24,432 nucleotides of DNA from Eubacteriales bacterium (GTDB taxonomy: Bacteria > Bacillota > Clostridia > Oscillospirales > CAG-272): contig JAZSMN010000202.1 of assembly GCA_045535925.1 (NCBI GenBank), positions 1 to 24,432 on the forward strand. The letters run 5' to 3'. Made by a program: the position numbers and the translations under genes. Position 1 is the first letter of the stretch. Every line of letters starts with the position of its first letter. Of the stretch, positions 15,521-24,100 are shown in pieces. Under the pieces are notes generated by a model, which saw nothing but the letters and a program-made list of their open reading frames with translations, searched no databases and was not told the DNA's origin.

Positions 15521-16704
15521 TGAGCGGCCGAGTTTTTTCACTTAAGGATATATTAAAGAGAGAGAAAAGCAAAAGACAGTTTTCCCCTGACCTTGTATTT
15601 TTAGTTTTGGTTATAGCGCTTTCGATTTATGGCACTATTATGGTTTTTACATCAGGGTATCCTTTTGCCTCGGTTAGATATGATGATGCGTTTTATTTTG
15701 TAAAGCGTCAGGTTATTTGGCTCTCCCTTGGCTTTGTAATTATGTTCTTTGCGGCAAAAATAACCCCATCGAGGCTTAAAAAATTAACTCCAGCGCTTTA
15801 TGTCTTAACCCTGGTGCTTCTTGTATTAACACTCTTAATCGGAATGGTCGGCAACGGTGCACAACGGTGGATTTCTTTAGGTCCTATAACAATACAGCCC
15901 TCCGAGATAGCCAAGCTAACTATGGTTTTGATGATGGCAAGGTATTTCTCGGATGCGGAAAATATCACTGTAAAAAACAAGCGCTGGCACAGTCTTATAT
16001 ACGGCACACTTATCCCCTTTGCCATTATGCTGTGCCCTATACTTCTCGTTATGCTCCAGCACCACCTGTCCTGTATTATTATCCTCGGTGTTATTGGTGT
16101 AATTTTAATAGTACTGTCAGGTGCGGATTTGAAATATCTTGGCGCTCTTATGTCTTTAGGAGTCGCGGGGGTGAGCTACATAGCACTATTTACCGACTAT
16201 ACCAAGGACAGAATCACCGTCTGGCTCGACCCGGAAAAGTACAAGTTGACGGGTGGGTGGCAAACACTTCAAGGGCTTATGGCAATAGGCTCGGGAGGAT
16301 TTTTCGGCAAGGGTCTTGGACAAGGTGAGCTAAAATATTGCTATGTTGCCGAGCCTGCAAATGATATGATATTTGCTATTTTGTGCGAGGAACTGGGCTT
16401 TGTGGGGGCTTTTGCTGCAGTAATTCTTTTTGCTATGCTTATCTTCCGAGGCTACAAAATAGCACTTAAGCAAAAAAACAGCTTTTCAAGACTCGCCTCG
16501 CTTGGAATTACAACAAAAATAGCCGTGCAAACACTACTCAATATTGCGGTGGTTACCAACACCATACCAAACACGGGCATATCTCTGCCCTTTTTCAGCT
16601 ATGGTGGCTCGTCACTATTAATGTTGTTTTTTGAGATGGGAATAATGCTGTCGATTTCAAAGGGCGAGGAGTATGCAGTAACAAAACAAGGAGGAAGAGG
16701 ATGA
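15520..16704 (+). CDS. ftsW: SEDS peptidoglycan polymerase (FtsW/SpoVE)
   Basis: GAQRWI, IQPSEIAK, AIGSGGFFGKG, EPANDMIF (catalytic Asp present), LPFFSYGGSSL. Start set at ATG 15520, overlapping the mraY stop. Confidence 0.93.
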   Translation: MSGRVFSLKDILKREKSKRQFSPDLVFLVLVIALSIYGTIMVFTSGYPFASVRYDDAFYFVKRQVIWLSLGFVIMFFAAKITPSRLKKLTPALYVLTLVLLVLTLLIGMVGNGAQRWISLGPITIQPSEIAKLTMVLMMARYFSDAENITVKNKRWHSLIYGTLIPFAIMLCPILLVMLQHHLSCIIILGVIGVILIVLSGADLKYLGALMSLGVAGVSYIALFTDYTKDRITVWLDPEKYKLTGGWQTLQGLMAIGSGGFFGKGLGQGELKYCYVAEPANDMIFAILCEELGFVGAFAAVILFAMLIFRGYKIALKQKNSFSRLASLGITTKIAVQTLLNIAVVTNTIPNTGISLPFFSYGGSSLLMLFFEMGIMLSISKGEEYAVTKQGGRG

Positions 16705-17810
16705 AGGCGATAATTTGTGGAGGTGGCACAGGTGGGCACGTATATCCTGCCATAGCAATATCCGAGGTTATAGAATCCGCCTACAAAGATAGCGAGATAA
16801 TTTTTGTCGGGCGCAGTGGTGGAAAAGAAAACACAGCCTACGAAAACACGAAAAAGGAATTGTTCCTTCTTGATGTCTCGGGGATATCACGGTCGCTGTC
16901 GTTAAAAAATCTGTCATCTATCCTAAAGGCTGTAAGAGCAAAGGCATATTCAAAGAAGCTCCTACAGTGGATAAAACCCGATATAGTTATAGGTACAGGC
17001 GGTTATGTATGCTGGCCTATGCTGTCTTCTGCAATAGAACTAAAAATCCCAACGCTTTTACACGAGTCTAATGCCTATCCAGGTATGGTCACAAGAATGC
17101 TCGCCCACAGGTGTACAGGAGTAATGCTAAACTATGAGGCCGCGCTTTCTTATCTACCCAAGGCAAACAACACAATACTAACAGGAACACCGTTAAGGCG
17201 CGGGTTTAAATTATACACGCGCGAGAGCGCGAGGAGGATGCTTGGAATCAAGGATGATGAAATAATGATATTATCCTTTGGAGGTAGCCTCGGCTCGTCC
17301 TCTATTAACGATGCCATAATAGCAATGATGGAAGAGTTTTCAAAGCCAAGAGAAAAGATACGGCACTTCCACGCAAGCGGAAAAAATCATTATGAAGAAA
17401 TAAAGAAAAAGCACCCCTCTCTCGTCAGGGGCGAGGCTGGGTGTAAAATACTACCATTTATAGAGAATATGCCATTATATATGCGCGCCTGCGACCTTGC
17501 TATTACAAGAAGCGGTGCAATTACACTATCCGAGCTTGCCGCATCAGGAGTAGGCGCAATCCTGGTCCCCTCGCCAAACGTGAGCGAAAATCATCAGCTA
17601 AAGAACGCAAAGTCATTGGTAGATATGGGGGCGGCAATAATGATTGAGGAGAGCGCCCTTGATAGTGACAGGCTAATAAAAGAGGTAAAAGAGCTTATAA
17701 ACAACAAGCAGCTCCTATACAGGCTCAAACGAAGAATAGCAAAAACCATCAACAATAACAGCTCCTCTCTCATAGAATCGGCTATCAAAACTGCTATCGA
17801 TACGGTGTAA
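16701..17810 (+). CDS. murG: Undecaprenyl-PP-MurNAc-pentapeptide GlcNAc transferase
   Basis: GGGTGGHVYPA, GTGGYV, HESNAYPG, FGGSLG, TRSGA.TLSEL, HQLKNA. Confidence 0.96.
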   Translation: MKAIICGGGTGGHVYPAIAISEVIESAYKDSEIIFVGRSGGKENTAYENTKKELFLLDVSGISRSLSLKNLSSILKAVRAKAYSKKLLQWIKPDIVIGTGGYVCWPMLSSAIELKIPTLLHESNAYPGMVTRMLAHRCTGVMLNYEAALSYLPKANNTILTGTPLRRGFKLYTRESARRMLGIKDDEIMILSFGGSLGSSSINDAIIAMMEEFSKPREKIRHFHASGKNHYEEIKKKHPSLVRGEAGCKILPFIENMPLYMRACDLAITRSGAITLSELAASGVGAILVPSPNVSENHQLKNAKSLVDMGAAIMIEESALDSDRLIKEVKELINNKQLLYRLKRRIAKTINNNSSSLIESAIKTAIDTV

Positions 17811-17878
17811 ATTCTGCCTCGTTTTATCTTCCATTTTCCAAAATGTGCTTAAAATATCTAAAATATTTTAATATTTTC

Positions 17879-17906
17879 TTGACTTTTGTTGTAAAAATAG
17901 TATAAT
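17879..17906 (+). promoter_or_regulatory. sigmaA-like promoter dedicated to ftsZ
   Basis: TTGACT (17879-17884), 16 nt, TATAAT (17901-17906). Confidence 0.6.
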
Positions 17907-17949
17907 TAATATATAAATATTTTATAAATTGACCGGAGGATTTGACATA

Positions 17950-19236
17950 ATGGACACCAGCAGAATGGAATTCGACTTTGAGCAGACCTACGAAAACGAA
18001 ATAAATATAAAAGTAATCGGCGTTAGCGGTGGCGGAAACAACGCAGTAAACCGTATGATATCCACCAATATTCGCGGTGTAGAATTTGTCGCTATCAATA
18101 CAGATAGCCAGGTTCTCGACTCCTCCTGTGCGGCAAGAAAGCTCGTTATCGGTGACAAGGTAACAAGAGGTAAGGGCGCAGGCGCAATCCCCGAGGTTGG
18201 TAGACGCAGCGCGGAAGAATCCATTGAAGAAATCAAGGCAATTCTCTCGGATGCAGATATGGTATTCATCACCGCAGGTATGGGTGGTGGTACTGGTACC
18301 GGTGCCGCTCCTGTCATAGCAAAGGCGGCAAAAGAACTGGATATCCTCACCGTAGCAATAGTAACCAAGCCCTTTAGCTTTGAGGGTCACAAGAGATATG
18401 ACCAGGCAGAGAAAGGCATAGCAGAGCTCTCCAAGTATGTAGACTCTCTTATCGTTATACCCAACGAGAGATTGAAGCAGGTCGAGGATACTCGCATCAC
18501 TCTTGCAAACGCATTTGAGATAGCAGACGATGTTCTTCGCCGTGGTGTACAGTCTATATCCGAGCTTATCAATGTTCCTGGTTTTGTAAACCTCGACTTT
18601 GCTGATGTTACAACAATTATGAAGAATGCAGGCTATGCTCATATGGGTGTTGGCTCTGCTAAGGGTGCGGATAAGGCACAGCTTGCCGCTATGGCAGCAA
18701 TATCCTCCCCCCTGCTAGAAACCAGCATATCCGGTGCTATGGGTGTACTTGTTAGCATTACCGCATCCGATGATATAACCCTTGAAGAGGTTGAGATAGC
18801 ATCTCGTATGATTCACGATGAAGCTCACCCTGATGCAACAATTATTTGGGGCGCTGCCTTTGACCCTAACCTCAAGGACGAAATCAAGGTGACTATTATA
18901 GCAACAGGATTTGAGAATGCAAAAAATGAGACTATAACCATTCCCACCATCCCTGCTACTGCACCTCAACTTGAGACTAAACCCCAGACTACTATTATAC
19001 CCGAGGTAGTTATAGCAACCTCCGTAGCCGAGGAGCAGACCACATATCAGCCCGAGGCTCATCCCATCGAGGAGCCTAAATACACTCCTACAACTATCGA
19101 GCCTATTACCTTCGAGGTTCCTATGAGTAAGCCTACTCCTGCACCCGCACCCGCTCCCCAAACCGAGAGCAAGAACGTTGCAGAGTCCCTCGATGAGTAT
19201 GACGAAATTTTCACATTTATCAAAAGAAATAAATAA
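17950..19236 (+). CDS. ftsZ: Cell division protein FtsZ
   Basis: [34 protein letters not shown] signature, NLDFADV T7 loop, long Pro/Thr linker. GGAGG RBS supports the start at 17950. Confidence 0.98.
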
Positions 19237-19255
19237 TCTTTCGCCGTAAATTTTT

Positions 19256-19344
19256 AAAAAGAGAGAATCAAGTAACCGATATTTTCCATTAAAGCTAGTT
19301 GCTTTTTTGTGGATATCTGTGCTACTTTGGTTCTCTCTTTTTTT
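19256..19344 (+). terminator. Long imperfect stem-loop with T-tract downstream of ftsZ (probable terminator or 3' structure)
   Basis: AAAAAGAGAGAA (19256-19267) / TTCTCTCTTTTT (19331-19342) outer stem, further internal pairings (GATAT/ATATC, TCCA/TGGA, AAAGC/GCTTT), ending in a T run. Confidence 0.5.
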
Positions 19345-20058
19345 GCTTTTTATAACTTTCAGGTTTTAAACAATATCAACAAAGAAAACAAAAAATATAT
19401 TTTTCCGTCCTCAAAAAATCGACTAGTTTTTATAACTCTACACAATTCCGTTGTGAGAAAAAACGGCATTTTTAGGTCAAAAAACGCCGTTTAAAGCCTG
19501 TTTTTGCTCGTTTTTGGCTTTCATATCGGAATTGTGTAGTTTTTGTGTTGAAAATTATCAACAGAATTTAGGGGTGTATAATCGTGTTTTCAACACTAAC
19601 TAACAGCAAAAATCTCTTTATCGAATTTGTATATTTTGAATTTCTGAAGCTGCGCTCCGCGTTTAAACACCATAATCCTATCTTTCGGCAATTTGAAATT
19701 TTATTTTTTTTAGAATGCTATTTTATCAGCTTGGGCATATTGGTTTATACTATATTCCTTCTCTCGTTATACCCCTTCCCTGCCCTACTTCGTTATCTAT
19801 ACTCTATCTCTACACTGCCAATGCTTTGCTCTAATCTACCTTTTTTTCCATCCTGACTATGCTGGGCTTAAACTTGATTTTACAGTAAGCGTTTTTCTTT
19901 CTTGCTCGACGTATGAGTAAAAACCCACCTTTGTATACAACACTCTTATATTAAGGGCGCCAGAGCCGTTTTTTTCGCCTTTAAGACGCGTATAAAATTT
20001 TACCCGTTAATTAGTCATCTATTTCTTCTTGCCTTAAATTGGCGAAAAAATGCCGCAT

Positions 20059-20101
20059 AAAGAAAAATGCACCCCGAGAGCCATTTGCTCAAAGGGTGCA
20101 T
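20059..20101 (-). terminator. Intrinsic terminator after the mreB-like/small peptide unit
   Basis: ATGCACCC/GGGTGCAT stem with inner GAGC/GCTC pairing, followed on the minus strand by TTTTCTTT. Confidence 0.75.
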
Positions 20102-20122: not shown

Positions 20123-20218
20123 TTAGATGAAAAGTACAAGAGCTCCCGCTACAACTCCGAAAATCATAAGGGCAACGAGTATGCCCGCCAACAATTTTGC
20201 TGCAGTTGTGTTTTTCAT
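20123..20218 (-). CDS. 31-aa single-pass membrane peptide (below the ORF-track cutoff)
   Basis: MKNTTAAKLLAGILVALMIFGVVAGALVLFI*. AAAGGATGG RBS-like sequence 8 nt upstream (alternative in-frame ATG at 20230). Lies between the mreB-like stop and a terminator. Architecture resembles DUF4044-type small proteins. Confidence 0.75.
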   Translation of the reverse strand: MKNTTAAKLLAGILVALMIFGVVAGALVLFI

Positions 20219-20251: not shown

Positions 20252-21295
20252 TTATTTTTTTGTGCTTTTGTAATATTGTGCTACCTTGCTGGTTATGTTC
20301 TGCTTGTTCTCTTTAAGCTTTATAGGTAGGAAGCTGTTTATTATAGACAGGCCTCTTGCCACGCAATCGATAGGATCCTTCGGTATCTTAACCTCAACAC
20401 CAAGAACCTTGGATATAAGTTTATCAAGACCGAAAATTTCTGCCCCACCACCGCTTAAAATAATTCCATTCTTAAACACCTCTTCAAGTGCATCATCGGG
20501 AATCTTCTTCAACGCGTCGATAATTGCATTAATAAGCAAGCGAAGAGCCGGCTCAAACACCCCGACTATGTCCTCGGTGGAAACACTCATCTTAAGCCTA
20601 TTTCCTGTCAAGGACAACGTTCCCTCTATATCAATACTGTCGTTAGGTCTGCCCTCCCAGACAGCACCCAAACGCTCTTTTATAGCTCTGGCGACTACAA
20701 GAGATATATTTACGTCGCCTTGCTCAAATATAAACTGCTTGACAGCCTTATCGAAATCCTCACCACCAATTTGATGTCGCTTGTTATAAATCAATGCTCC
20801 ATTGTTGGTAACCGAAATTTCTGTCGACAAGGCACCGATATTAACAGATACAGCGCTCATAGCAGGAGAATATCCTGCGCCAACCAAAGCGGCAACTGCG
20901 CGGGAAACAGATACAACCTGTTCTACACCCAAAGAAGCAACCATATCAAAGAGATCTTTTTCCTGTTTAGGCAAAATATCAGCAGGCACAGCAAGGATGC
21001 ATCTAATCTTATCCTTACGGCTAACCGCCTTTAGGGCACAACCGATAATCTCATTTGTCAAGGCGTGGTCAAATAGCAATCCGTTCTTGAACGGGCGAAT
21101 GAGAATACCCTCTTCCCCATTCTTGTCGCCACAATCCCTGCTTACCGCATCCGAACCAACCGAAATGATACGGGGCATACCGCTTTGTGGATTTTTATAA
21201 ACCAAGGCAACCGAGGGCTCTCTGAAAATGCCGCTTCGCTCGTCGCTGATGGTTATGTTAGCATATCCAAGATCCAAGCCGATTTTTGTAACCAT
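20252..21295 (-). CDS. Divergent MreB/Mbl-family actin-like protein
   Basis: GLDLG.AN, EPSVA, RPFKNG, GGEDFDKAV, IKERLG, GIILSGGGAEIFGLD, DCVARG. Catalytic motifs are altered (see findings). AAAGGAG RBS. Confidence 0.88.
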   Translation of the reverse strand: MVTKIGLDLGYANITISDERSGIFREPSVALVYKNPQSGMPRIISVGSDAVSRDCGDKNGEEGILIRPFKNGLLFDHALTNEIIGCALKAVSRKDKIRCILAVPADILPKQEKDLFDMVASLGVEQVVSVSRAVAALVGAGYSPAMSAVSVNIGALSTEISVTNNGALIYNKRHQIGGEDFDKAVKQFIFEQGDVNISLVVARAIKERLGAVWEGRPNDSIDIEGTLSLTGNRLKMSVSTEDIVGVFEPALRLLINAIIDALKKIPDDALEEVFKNGIILSGGGAEIFGLDKLISKVLGVEVKIPKDPIDCVARGLSIINSFLPIKLKENKQNITSKVAQYYKSTKK

Positions 21296-21333
21296 CCGTA
21301 TCTCCTTTCGTGATTATTTGTGCAGTACAGATA

Positions 21334-21362
21334 ATTATACTATGTTTTTACAGAAATTGCAA
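21334..21362 (-). promoter_or_regulatory. sigmaA promoter for the mreB-like gene and small peptide
   Basis: Minus strand reads TTGCAA, 17 nt, TATAAT. Confidence 0.7.
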
Positions 21363-21379: not shown

Positions 21380-23584
21380 TTAGTTTTCCGCCAGGCGCTC
21401 TGCAAGAGTGGTGTATCGCAAGGTTTCACGATTGTTTTGCACCATTCTACCGGGGATATCTGCCCTACCGACTAATATAACCATTTTCTTGGCACGAGTG
21501 ACGGCTGTATAAAGCAGATTTCTTGTCAAAAGCATCGGTGCGCAATAGTACATCGGAATTATAACAACAGGATATTCACTACCCTGACTCTTGTGTACTG
21601 TTATCGCGTAGGCGAGTTCAAGCTCTTCAAGATTTTCAAAGGGATATTCCACCCTTCTCTCATCAAACAGGATAAGCATCTTCTCTTCGCTTGGGTCGAT
21701 GCGTTCGACAACTCCCACGTCACCATTGAAAATGCCAATTCCCTCATATCCCGCCTTTTCCCAACGCAACTCATAGTTGTTGGTGTTTTGCATAACCTTG
21801 TCTCCCTCACGGAAGATTGTACCGTGGGCGGCTTTTTCTCGCTTAAACTTACCAGGCGGGTTTATTCTCGCCTGTAATTCCATATTAAGTGTTTCAACAC
21901 CGCCAGGCCCCTTTCTCGAGGGAGAGATAACCTGTATTTGCGAGGAAAAATCTCTGCCGTAGCTTCTTGGTAATCTCTCGGTAATCAAGGAGGAAATGGT
22001 AGAAGGTATCAACCTCTCGTCCTCACGATTTACAAAGAAGAAATCGTTGTCTGTGATACCAAGCAAAGGAGTAATACCCGCATTAATACGGTGGGCATTA
22101 CTGATTATAAGGCTTTTTTCCGACTGACGGAATATTTCTTTAAGACAAACCGTGCTAATAACACCAGAGGCGATAAAATCGGCAAGCACATTTCCAGCCC
22201 CCACACTTGGTAGCTGGTCAGAGTCGCCTATGAGGATAAGACGCGCGCCCCTCTTCATAGCACGAAGAAGTGCGGTAATCAAAGAGAGGTCAATCATCGA
22301 GGCCTCGTCTGCAATAACCACATCCTCGTCCAAGGGGTTTCGACTATCGCGGTTAAAGACGGTTTCAAAGCCGCCTCGTCTTTCCATTTCCAAAAGTCGG
22401 TGAATAGTCTTCGCCTCGTGGCCTGTCGCCTCGCTAAGTCGCTTTGCCGCGCGACCGGTGGGTGCACACAAGACAACCTTTCGACCAATACCGTTAAACA
22501 GGGTAATCATCGCACGAACGACAGTAGTCTTACCGGTACCGGGTCCACCGGTTAAAATGCTAACACCATTTTCAAGGGCACGGAACAGCGCCAGCCTCTG
22601 CAAGTGTGCATACTCGATACCCATATATGCCTCGACCTCTTCTATCATCGAGGAAATATCATACTGGCTAAAGGTGGATAAATCACTACACATGCTTCTG
22701 ATTTTAGCGGCGACAAATCTCTCGTTTTCGTCGGTGGTAGAACTCATAATAAGTCTATCATTTTCGGTTTGGTAAGAGGCAATAGCCTCCTCTACAATTA
22801 GTTCTTCGAGGGTTTGAGAAACTGCCGTTTTTTCAATATTAAGCATTTGTGCCGTGGCAGAAAGCAGTTTTTCCTCTGGAAGGCAGGTGTGCCCGTTGGT
22901 AACTCCGTTGTAAGAAAGTATGTATTCAAGGCCTGTGAATATACGATTTTTTGACATCATATTATGCCCCAAGGACATTGCTATTTTGTCAGCGGTTTCA
23001 AAAGAAATGCCATACTCGGTGTCGCATAGGATATAAGGATTTTCCTTAACTATACCTATTGTGTCGCCACCCAGCTTCTTATACATTTTTGATATTTCAC
23101 CCAACGAGGCATAGTCCTTAAAGAACATCATTACATTTCTAAAACCTGCTTGCTCACGGAAGGACGCGGAAATTGTTGCCGCTTTTTTTAGCGTAATTCC
23201 GGGAATATCCGCAAGCCACTCGGGGTGGTTCTCGATTATATTAAAGGTATCAAGACCAAATCTGTTTACTATTTTTAGCGCGGTGACGGGGCCTACTCCT
23301 TTTACAGAGCGGCTTGACAAATATTGAATTATGCCGTCAATTTCATCAGGCAAATACTTCTCATGCTTTGATAAGACAAACTGTTTACCAAACTCCTTGT
23401 GGAAAGTCCAAGTACCATAAAGCACTACCCTCTCCCCCTCAGTGAGCATCGGGATTTCTCCCACCGCTGTTACAAGTTCGTCATCAACCGAAATTTGGAA
23501 AACGGTATAGTCATTGGTTTCGTTTTTATAAACAATCTCTTCTACTGTACCACTGATAGTTTCAAGGGTTGACATTCTGTCCAT
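21380..23584 (-). CDS. recD2: ATP-dependent RecD2 DNA helicase (SF1B)
   Basis: N-terminal OB/HhH region (VKGVGPVTA), Walker A GGPGTGKTT, LCAPTGRAAKRL, DEASM, GDSDQLPSVG, FRQSEKS, YAITVHKSQGSE, LLYTAVTRAK. Confidence 0.96.
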   Translation of the reverse strand: MDRMSTLETISGTVEEIVYKNETNDYTVFQISVDDELVTAVGEIPMLTEGERVVLYGTWTFHKEFGKQFVLSKHEKYLPDEIDGIIQYLSSRSVKGVGPVTALKIVNRFGLDTFNIIENHPEWLADIPGITLKKAATISASFREQAGFRNVMMFFKDYASLGEISKMYKKLGGDTIGIVKENPYILCDTEYGISFETADKIAMSLGHNMMSKNRIFTGLEYILSYNGVTNGHTCLPEEKLLSATAQMLNIEKTAVSQTLEELIVEEAIASYQTENDRLIMSSTTDENERFVAAKIRSMCSDLSTFSQYDISSMIEEVEAYMGIEYAHLQRLALFRALENGVSILTGGPGTGKTTVVRAMITLFNGIGRKVVLCAPTGRAAKRLSEATGHEAKTIHRLLEMERRGGFETVFNRDSRNPLDEDVVIADEASMIDLSLITALLRAMKRGARLILIGDSDQLPSVGAGNVLADFIASGVISTVCLKEIFRQSEKSLIISNAHRINAGITPLLGITDNDFFFVNREDERLIPSTISSLITERLPRSYGRDFSSQIQVISPSRKGPGGVETLNMELQARINPPGKFKREKAAHGTIFREGDKVMQNTNNYELRWEKAGYEGIGIFNGDVGVVERIDPSEEKMLILFDERRVEYPFENLEELELAYAITVHKSQGSEYPVVIIPMYYCAPMLLTRNLLYTAVTRAKKMVILVGRADIPGRMVQNNRETLRYTTLAERLAEN

Positions 23585-23725: not shown

Positions 23726-24100
23726 TTAGAATCCGCCGCCAACATCAAGGCTCTCAAGTGTACCGCTAATTTCACCGCTGCTATTGCACCATTGGCAACA
23801 AGAAAATTGTTCTCCTGCGTGGCAATTAATTTTCCCGCAAGAACCACACCGATAGTAACCTCCCTTGCCACAGTAAGGACACCCCGGCCATTTTTCGTTC
23901 CAACGAATGTCACCTTTGATGGTAAAAATAGAAGCATATCCTTCACGACCTGCCGCCTTTTCATCAATAGCGAATGTCCAGTGATGCTCCCAATAAGCCT
24001 CGCTGCTACTTTCAAACTTAACCATTGTCATTCCGTAAGGTTTACCAGTCTTAGAACATTTGCACATTATAACGCCACCATCTGTTATATTTGATGCCAT
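23726..24100 (-). CDS. Standalone TerY-C-like Cys-rich metal-binding protein (copy 1)
   Basis: AGGAGG RBS. CKCSKTGKPY..W.FAID..PGCPYCG..CGSCGKINC..CQWC..LDVGGGF matches the TerY-C domain pattern as I recall it. Confidence 0.78.
   Translation of the reverse strand: MASNITDGGVIMCKCSKTGKPYGMTMVKFESSSEAYWEHHWTFAIDEKAAGREGYASIFTIKGDIRWNEKWPGCPYCGKGGYYRCGSCGKINCHAGEQFSCCQWCNSSGEISGTLESLDVGGGF

Follow-up and report, generated by a model that had tools for sequence, protein, structure and literature searches.

Studies of MreB normally treat it as a double filament at the membrane that is driven by ATP and guides the elongasome. Here we describe a 24,432-nucleotide (nt) stretch of DNA (contig JAZSMN010000202.1 of assembly GCA_045535925.1, from a Eubacteriales bacterium; hereafter the window, meaning this stretch at its full length) that encodes a divergent member of the MreB/Mbl family, here called the MreB-like protein, in which residues linked to ATP hydrolysis have been exchanged for an alternative set held under strong purifying selection. 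The gene is the only MreB copy found in its assembly, and a conserved small open reading frame (micro-ORF) for a membrane-spanning micro-protein follows it directly. We consider it likely that the MreB-like protein is poor at hydrolysis. The reading we prefer, with somewhat less assurance, is that it would serve as an MreB-derived membrane scaffold or adaptor tethered by the micro-protein, for which direct contact between the two proteins is slightly favoured.

Fold, active site and conservation of the MreB-like protein

The product of the mreB-like gene matches the Pfam profile MreB_Mbl (PF06723) with 167.3 bits against a cut-off of 27, over profile positions 2–318 of 327. An AlphaFold2 (AF2) model built from a 117-sequence alignment reached a pLDDT of 92.7 and a pTM of 0.90, and its best 25 Foldseek matches were all MreB or Mbl (TM 0.78–0.88), with MamK and actin next. 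The protein is a member of the MreB/Mbl family with the four-subdomain actin/MreB fold. It does not reach the cut-offs of the canonical NCBIfam models for MreB, MreB/Mrl and MreBH, scoring about half of them or less (NF010539, 155.7 versus 293; TIGR00904, 145.3 versus 365.75; MreBH NF010540, 132.6 versus 515), nor those for MamK, BeeR, salactin and volactin (53 versus 400, 31 versus 530 and 28 versus 400); in its homologs, salactin and volactin matches were sub-threshold or marginal and lay under the MreB match. The FtsA profile (TIGR01174) gave 44.5 bits against a cut-off of 175.85, in the IIA region only, and the protein has no FtsA 1C domain. The PilM profile (TIGR01175) gave 32.5 bits against 133, the Pfam PilM_2 match (PF11104; 28.6 bits) covers residues 150–186 (37 residues) only, and no pil genes lie near the mreB-like gene. 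The protein starts MVTKIGLDLG, with no N-terminal extension. Beyond CVARG it continues for 30 residues, ending KSTKK (about 17 in Geobacillus MreB), which agrees with the basic C-terminal extension that a first-pass annotation of the window had described; residues 335–344 form a confident helix in the AF2 model, and this C-terminal helix is conserved.

Residue equivalences were taken from phmmer alignments to solved MreBs, with native Caulobacter numbering obtained by adding 7 to the chain index of 4cze_A, an offset verified by the F102/V103 and S283D constructs listed in PMC4051119; this template is only 26–27% identical to the MreB-like protein. The first-pass annotation had read three motif changes (DLGTAN to DLGYAN, EEPMAAAIGAG to SRAVAALVGAG and DIGGGTT to NIGALST) next to an intact adenosine motif and GGEDFD, and the alignments bear it out residue by residue. 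The Thr of DLGTAN becomes Tyr11. The segment I(D/E)EP(M/F)AAAIGA becomes VSRAVAALVGA, which places Arg132 at Glu140 and Ser131 at the acidic residue just before it. In place of DIGGGTTE stands NIGALSTE, with Asn152 at Asp162, Ser157 at Thr167 and Gly154-Ala155-Leu156 for the canonical Gly-Gly-Gly. The acidic residue at Glu169 is kept as Glu159, and Asp8, IGGEDFD and the adenosine motif ILSGGGAEIFGLD are all intact.

In filaments of Caulobacter crescentus MreB (CcMreB), E140 and T167 hold the water that attacks the gamma-phosphate (PMC4051119). The E...T-X-[D/E] motif to which these residues belong is conserved in 95.8% of MreBs (PMC9597168). The pattern of a functional canonical MreB, consisting of this motif, the Mg-site Asp and the DxGGGT loop, is replaced here by R132...S157-T-E159, N152 and G-A-L. 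In Spiroplasma citri MreB5 (ScMreB5), the mutants E134A, D12A, D156A and T161A all have lowered ATPase activity (PMC9195046); of these four positions only that of D12 is kept, as Asp8, and the other three are replaced, in line with the earlier proposal of an MreB relative with degenerate ATP-hydrolysis motifs. ScMreB5 E134A still forms filaments, which are stable and bind liposomes more weakly (PMC9195046), and Spiroplasma eriocheiris MreB3 (SpeMreB3), which naturally lacks E...T-X-[D/E], releases inorganic phosphate slowly, yet polymerises (PMC9597168). Judging from the kept adenosine and phosphate-1 Asp motifs, nucleotide binding is probably retained in the MreB-like protein.

The replacement residues are themselves highly conserved. 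A search of 5.8 billion proteins returned 975 relatives, and among the top 120 full-length homologs (58–100% identical) Tyr11, Arg132 and Thr158 are each found in 120/120, Asn152 in 119/120 and Ala155 in 118/120; 103 of the 347 positions are at least 98% conserved. Glu and GGG are kept in 26/26 canonical relatives, whereas none of the 23 proteins of the window's genus (the window and 22 fetched loci) has Glu at the catalytic position. The first-pass annotation had looked to orthologs to tell a conserved trait from lineage-specific decay, in which they would keep the catalytic Glu or Asp; the substitutions proved to be shared. Compared with the closest ortholog, locus L036, the MreB-like protein is 89.9% identical, above RecD2, FtsZ, FtsW and MurG, and its ratio of non-synonymous to synonymous substitution rates (dN/dS) is 0.041, next to 0.041 for recD2, 0.051 for ftsW and 0.075 for ftsZ in the same genome pair and 0.016–0.054 for pairs of canonical MreBs in related genera.

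The maximum-likelihood tree unites the proteins of the genus in a single clade (SH-aLRT 98). The subfamily to which the window protein belongs, which we call group I (12 loci), has a long stem branch (0.91 substitutions per site) with short branches beyond it. All other proteins of the genus (group II) are 27–33% identical to the window protein and carry V-Y-(S/A/T)-P in place of S-R-A. The history of group I looks like a burst followed by stasis, not continuing decay. Because the residues are conserved in 120 homologs and dN/dS is 0.041, the group-I substitutions are a fixed alternative state under strong purifying selection and not decay. The earlier description of the motifs as degenerate is right in that the canonical residues are lost, but it undersells replacements that are invariant and strongly selected. 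An early impression of a fast-evolving gene was wrong for group I, in which rates equal those of neighbouring housekeeping genes and the jump falls on one stem branch.

Two further regions differ from canonical MreBs. The segment corresponding to the hydrophobic membrane loop, which the first-pass annotation had already marked as altered, reads SRKDKIR and is 2–4 residues shorter than in canonical relatives, in which the loop carries the pair VF, FW, FF or LV; no such hydrophobic pair is present. MAFFT and phmmer alignments disagree over loop residues 96 and 97, and we use only the statement that the loop is shorter and has no hydrophobic pair. With this shortened loop and no N-terminal extension, the protein appears to have no membrane-binding element of its own. 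At the inter-protofilament position Val118 it has Lys110, a change that the first-pass annotation of this gene does not mention, just as it does not mention the micro-ORF; Lys is found in 119/120 homologs and Val in 25/26 canonical relatives. The CcMreB mutant V118E assembles into single protofilaments, and the corresponding E. coli mutant fails to support a rod shape; S283D renders CcMreB monomeric (PMC4051119). The S283 position is Glu271 here and Glu in 78/120 homologs, hence variable. Read with the caution due to a distant template, this mapping hints that flat antiparallel pairing is no longer kept in its canonical form.

A sole MreB copy and its probable origin

The window's own assembly (1.63 Mb, 81.6% complete) yielded no second MreB-family gene, no FtsA and no MreC; here and below, an absence means not found in the genomes searched. 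Of 24 further genomes assigned to this GTDB genus, 23 have a single divergent MreB-like gene each (160–243 bits) and none has a canonical MreB; the one left over, 63% complete, gave no MreB match. The other weak matches in this search are DnaK. Wherever the locus is present in the genus, the mreB-like ORF is uninterrupted. Five genus genomes that are 95–99% complete have no MreC, MreD, RodZ (RodZ_C) or FtsA, and the rod-system partners RodA/PBP2 were not found in them; each encodes one SEDS protein and two proteins with a transpeptidase domain, along with SepF and SpoIVA (SpoIVA at 350–378 bits in the genus). This gene content suggests a spore-forming lineage in which FtsZ and SepF carry out division and the elongasome is missing. 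The first-pass annotation had called the gene a paralog and advised confirming a canonical mreBCD elsewhere in the genome; none was found, and the window gene is the sole surviving MreB copy. SpoIVA occurs together with only one SEDS protein in G004, G013, G014, G016 and G024 of the genus, in which a single FtsW/SpoVE-type protein would have to serve both septum and spore cortex, or the cortex would have to be made differently.

We surveyed 121 genomes of the GTDB family, taking a best MreB_Mbl match of at least 300 bits as canonical. MreC is found in 61 of the 65 genomes with a canonical MreB, in 2 of the 25 with only divergent MreBs below 300 bits (both of one genus) and in none of the 31 without any MreB. 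Firmicutes that have become cocci typically lose MreB and keep MreC, MreD and RodA (PMC8136486); the window genus is the reverse of this pattern, in that the partners were not found and one MreB is kept. In another genus, g22, the genomes G045 and G126 (loci L056, L057 and L077) keep MreC and have only divergent MreBs (226–294 bits), with no SpoIVA found; this genus may represent an intermediate state of elongasome decay.

Rod-type relatives have two canonical MreB copies, one of which lies in a maf-mreB-mreC-(mreD)-pbp2 operon. In G121 (461 bits) and G095 (424 bits) the second copy is preceded by recD2 and a gene for a ComF-like phosphoribosyltransferase, and recD2 stands ahead of the canonical second copy in the relatives L046 and L054. 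The order recD2 then MreB-like gene recurs in 20/22 fetched genus loci and in divergent orphan MreBs of several other genera. Because this recD2-linked synteny is shared with the canonical second copy, the window gene is best read as the positional descendant of the second, recD2-linked MreB paralog, kept after loss of the mreBCD operon. This origin rests on synteny; the tree, with its long branches, does not resolve the donor canonical clade. The ComF-like gene, of about 260 aa, stands between recD2 and the second mreB at L046:3062-3856, L054:3056-3865 and L058:4781-5566; in the window's genus it is deleted, and an 84-bp spacer is left.

Other genera have independently kept the maf-linked MreB copy instead, with an nth (endonuclease III) gene in place of mreC. 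Such maf-linked orphans are found in G041, G057, G100, G109 and G122 (L062, L069, L064, L067 and L074), in which mreC and mreD are gone and the endonuclease III gene lies downstream. The catalytic Glu of these proteins has been lost in various ways, and their evolution is faster (dN/dS 0.11–0.29). It seems that the hydrolysis residue disappears each time an elongasome is lost.

The two-gene unit and its surroundings

The mreB-like gene and the micro-ORF are bracketed by a promoter-like site and a candidate terminator (Table 1). The promoter-like site scores 10/12, with a perfect -10 element and four of six matches in the -35 element. The arrangement TTG(A/C)A(A/T)-17-TA(T/C)AAT stands upstream of the mreB-like gene in 12/12 group-I orthologs examined, as expected from the gene's own sigmaA promoter noted in the first-pass annotation, and the upstream regions of these 12 orthologs also keep the ribosome-binding sequence AAGGA(G/T).

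Table 1. Positions of the two-gene unit, its predicted signals and the flanking genes in the window
Feature	Position	Strand	Remarks
ftsZ	17929..19236	+	End of the dcw cluster, convergent on the mreB-like unit
Intrinsic-terminator-like hairpin and U-tract	20058..20101	-	-30 kcal/mol, z -3.5, UUUUUCUUU after the stem; would close the two-gene unit
Micro-ORF, 31 amino acids (aa)	20123..20218	-	MKNTTAAK, then a single predicted transmembrane helix; 33 nt after the mreB-like stop
mreB-like gene, 347 aa	20252..21295	-	ATG start; MreB-family product (alignment, conservation, dN/dS, model)
Ribosome-binding site AAGGAG	21302..21307	-	6 nt before the ATG of the mreB-like gene
Sigma-A-type promoter-like site	21334..21362	-	TTGCAA-17 nt-TATAAT, in the 84-bp spacer between recD2 and the mreB-like gene
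recD2 (RecD2/YrrC-type helicase gene)	21380..23584	-	Pfam; upstream on the same strand; neighbour in conserved synteny, with no functional link claimed

When the 1-kb gap downstream of the mreB-like gene was aligned with L036, one sharply conserved block stood out directly after the stop codon, and this block is the 31-codon micro-ORF, with 8 synonymous against 4 conservative codon differences. An AGGA lies 11 nt ahead of its ATG; an upstream in-frame ATG, which would give a 35-codon version, is out of frame in L036. In each of the 23 genus loci examined (the window and 22 others), a homolog of 31–41 codons begins no more than 54 nt past the mreB-like stop, and in three of these loci its ATG overlaps that stop (ATGA), an arrangement of translational coupling. 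The micro-proteins share a basic N-tail and, after it, a transmembrane segment whose conserved core reads A..LA.LM..G. No member of the family follows any of 49 MreB genes of other genera, canonical or orphan; the small ORFs scored downstream of the MreB genes in L007 and L060 are hydrophobic and unrelated. The micro-protein has no significant match to a Pfam family, and in public data gene callers predict it and it carries no name. No fusion of an MreB-like protein to a transmembrane segment (a Rosetta-stone protein) occurs in the 120 near-length homologs or the closest 50%-identity cluster representatives, the set that was searched, outside of which falls the 'longer' length class; longer calls among the homologs are explained by start codons placed too far upstream or by polar tails. 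In L024 and L078, too, the micro-ORF is followed by GC-rich hairpins with T-runs. Another terminator-like hairpin, at 20186-20170, was rejected as it lies inside the micro-ORF coding sequence.

On the plus strand the window carries a dcw cluster (mraZ, rsmH, a PASTA-bearing class B penicillin-binding protein (bPBP) gene, murE, murF, mraY, an FtsW-type SEDS gene, murG and ftsZ). With recD2 84 bp upstream and the micro-ORF and convergent ftsZ downstream, the mreB-like gene has no mreC or mreD neighbours, as the first-pass annotation had stated. The module lies within about 1 kb of ftsZ in 9 group-I loci and about 15 kb from the dcw cluster in group-II genomes. At 16701-19236, murG is followed by ftsZ with no ftsQ/divIB or ftsA between them. 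The gap from the ftsZ stop to the unit terminator (19237-20057, about 0.8 kb) is AT-rich and has no convincing ORF; it holds several blocks that are near-identical in L036, and inverted repeats at 19438-19456/19521-19539, 19256-19271/19327-19342 and 19542-19554/19587-19599. Rfam at gathering thresholds returned nothing in the window, with only chance miRNA-like hairpin matches in the gap between ftsZ and the mreB-like gene; the gap may hold the ftsZ terminator and an unannotated small RNA or regulatory element. Upstream of recD2, positions 23726-24100 of the minus strand encode a 124-aa Cys-rich protein with a TerY_C metal-binding domain, which is conserved at the same place in L036 with 78% identity.

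A proposed tethered scaffold and competing explanations

From these observations we propose the following model. A recD2-linked second MreB copy would have survived the loss of the elongasome (mreB-mreC-mreD-pbp2, RodA and RodZ). In group I, the phosphate site would then have gained Tyr11, Arg132 and Asn152, and the flat inter-protofilament face Lys110, as fixed residues in a burst of change that also shortened the membrane loop; the protein would keep its fold and no longer be a dynamic, ATP-hydrolysing double filament that binds the membrane by itself. Its own vegetative-type promoter would drive its co-expression with a single-pass membrane micro-protein of 31–41 aa, whose short basic cytoplasmic N-tail most likely docks on the MreB-like protein and tethers it in trans. 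Together the two would form a static scaffold or adaptor on the membrane that would most plausibly serve the one SEDS/PBP synthase left, or the organisation of the membrane; candidate roles are to organise a machinery of single FtsW/bPBP and class A penicillin-binding protein (aPBP), or the membrane.

Several points weigh against this model. Thirty-one of the 121 family genomes have no MreB at all, so similar cells can do without the function. Nucleotide binding could be lost altogether through Asn152, the bulky Tyr11 and the Gly-to-Ala/Leu changes, and an Arg in the gamma-phosphate region could stabilise the transition state instead of ending catalysis. What links the micro-protein to the MreB-like protein is their conserved adjacency, and mapping single interface residues onto a template of 26–27% identity says little about polymerisation. 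Group II of the same genus has Ser, Ala or Thr at position 132 and often keeps the Asp and Val118; because it differs in this way, the features of group I are not required for the module's original function.

A bolder reading, which we regard as tentative, goes further than the tethered scaffold and dispenses with filaments. The MreB-like protein would be a pseudo-ATPase adaptor, locked to nucleotide or free of it, in which Arg132 and Tyr11 fill the gamma-phosphate site, Lys110 abolishes the double-filament face and the protein clamps the N-tail of the micro-protein; the resulting two-component module would have taken over a morphogenetic or division-site role after the elongasome was lost.

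Alternatively, the catalytic centre could have been rebuilt and not lost, which we consider unlikely. Either Arg132 would stabilise the transition state with help from Tyr11, Asn152 and Glu159, or water activation would fall to another acidic residue, and the protein would be a hydrolysing polymer or a phosphotransferase. Other enzymes of the ASKHA fold, such as acetate kinase, use active-site arginines. That the new residues are invariant and not random is what a working site would lead one to expect, and Glu159 (the acidic member of T-X-[D/E]), Asp8 and the adenosine motif are kept. However, every MreB, ParM, MamK and actin that has been studied has a Glu or Gln that positions the water (PMC4051119, PMC9195046), and loss of E134, D156 or T161 singly cripples the ATPase of ScMreB5 (PMC9195046), whereas all three are changed here. 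The Mg-coordinating Asp is moreover an Asn, and the glycine loop that wraps the phosphates carries an Ala and a large residue.

We find it improbable that the MreB-like protein and the micro-protein together replace FtsA in tethering FtsZ to the membrane. In E. coli, MreB is known to contact FtsZ, and chlamydial division is driven by MreB. An ftsA gene was found neither between murG and ftsZ nor elsewhere in the genome or genus, group-I loci have the mreB-like gene and ftsZ in convergent orientation, and the weak FtsA and PilM Pfam matches fall over the phosphate-2 region. The absence of FtsA, however, does not track the gene: FtsA (TIGR01174) is found in 0/121 family genomes whatever their MreB state, including rods with canonical MreB and the 31 genomes without MreB. 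SepF, which is a sufficient FtsZ anchor in other FtsA-less bacteria, is present, and the whole family may rely on it alone. The distance between the group-II module and the dcw cluster and the missing FtsA 1C domain also speak against this explanation.

A sporulation-specific, Mbl-like MreB for engulfment or for shaping the spore wall or cortex is just as improbable. It would suit a genus that encodes SpoIVA, and a precedent exists in the second Firmicutes MreB paralog, Mbl, which is linked to spoIIID and spoIID and for which a sporulation role has been proposed (PMC8136486). The conserved promoter, however, is of the vegetative sigma-A type and no sporulation genes adjoin; SpoIVA is found in 104/121 family genomes, many of them without MreB (for example G044, G046, G047, G050 and G054), and shows no correlation with the gene.

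Finally, a left-over MreB drifting to loss after the elongasome, with no important function, would fit the family's continuum from canonical through divergent to no MreB, the long-branched orphans of other genera that lose the Glu variously, and the in-frame TAG in one relative (G099), but for group I it is contradicted by dN/dS values in the range of canonical MreBs and neighbouring housekeeping genes, by the identity and conservation of its orthologs and by the conserved promoter, ribosome-binding site, partner ORF, terminator and intact reading frame, and we give it almost no weight.

Among known systems, the nearest precedent for a naturally ATPase-poor MreB is SpeMreB3 (7e1c/7e1g; PMC9597168), which also lacks E...T-X-[D/E], has the MreB fold and works independently of an elongasome; that the MreB-like protein resembles it in activity as well is predicted from sequence. 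The SpeMreB3 structure and the AF2 model superpose with a TM of about 0.8, although sequence identity is only about 22%. The substitutions in SpeMreB3 are Asp, Lys and Ser; those in the window protein are Arg, Ser and a kept Glu, with Asp to Asn, GGG to GA(L/Q) and Thr to Tyr in addition. Spiroplasma is wall-less and swims with five MreBs, and its MreB3 has no micro-protein partner, whereas the window organism has peptidoglycan genes, spores, a single MreB and such a partner. Firmicutes MreB, Mbl and MreBH (for example Geobacillus MreB, 7zpt, and B. subtilis Mbl) share with the window protein the fold, length, domain order, phosphate-1 Asp, adenosine motif and Pfam family, but at 26–29% identity; the replaced catalytic residues, short loop, Val118-to-Lys change, C-terminal helix and micro-protein set it apart from them.

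For the predicted pairing with a micro-protein, PilM–PilN, FtsA–FtsN and MreB–RodZ offer an analogy, in which a protein of the actin fold binds nucleotide, can do without its turnover and clamps the short cytoplasmic N-tail of a bitopic membrane protein encoded next to it. In contrast to PilM–PilN, there is no family-level homology here, and the micro-protein has neither a periplasmic domain nor a PilN motif. Chlamydial MreB offers another parallel, as an MreB kept in a coccoid lineage with reduced morphogenetic genes and repurposed from rod elongation. Chlamydia has no FtsZ and keeps RodA, PBP2, RodZ and an ATPase-competent MreB with an N-terminal extension, whereas the window genus has FtsZ, its rod-system partners were not found and the active site is rewired.

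In the literature searched, we found no published description of the group-I subfamily or of the micro-protein. New elements are the invariant Arg/Tyr/Asn set, the Lys at the pairing face, the presence as sole copy in a walled, elongasome-less spore former, and the dedicated micro-protein. The homologs carry the public label 'rod shape-determining protein [Clostridia bacterium]', and the hundreds of public entries of this name (for example MBR3681126.1) are very unlikely to determine rod shape. The window protein offers a natural experiment in what an MreB fold would do without ATP turnover and without a rod system, and adds a candidate family of micro-protein partners that is nameless in public data. 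These organisms are known only as metagenome-assembled genomes, apparently of uncultured gut Clostridia, and the finding bears on how commensals with reduced genomes build their envelope. If the adaptor reading is true, the pair would be a previously undescribed two-component membrane module in spore-forming gut Clostridia.

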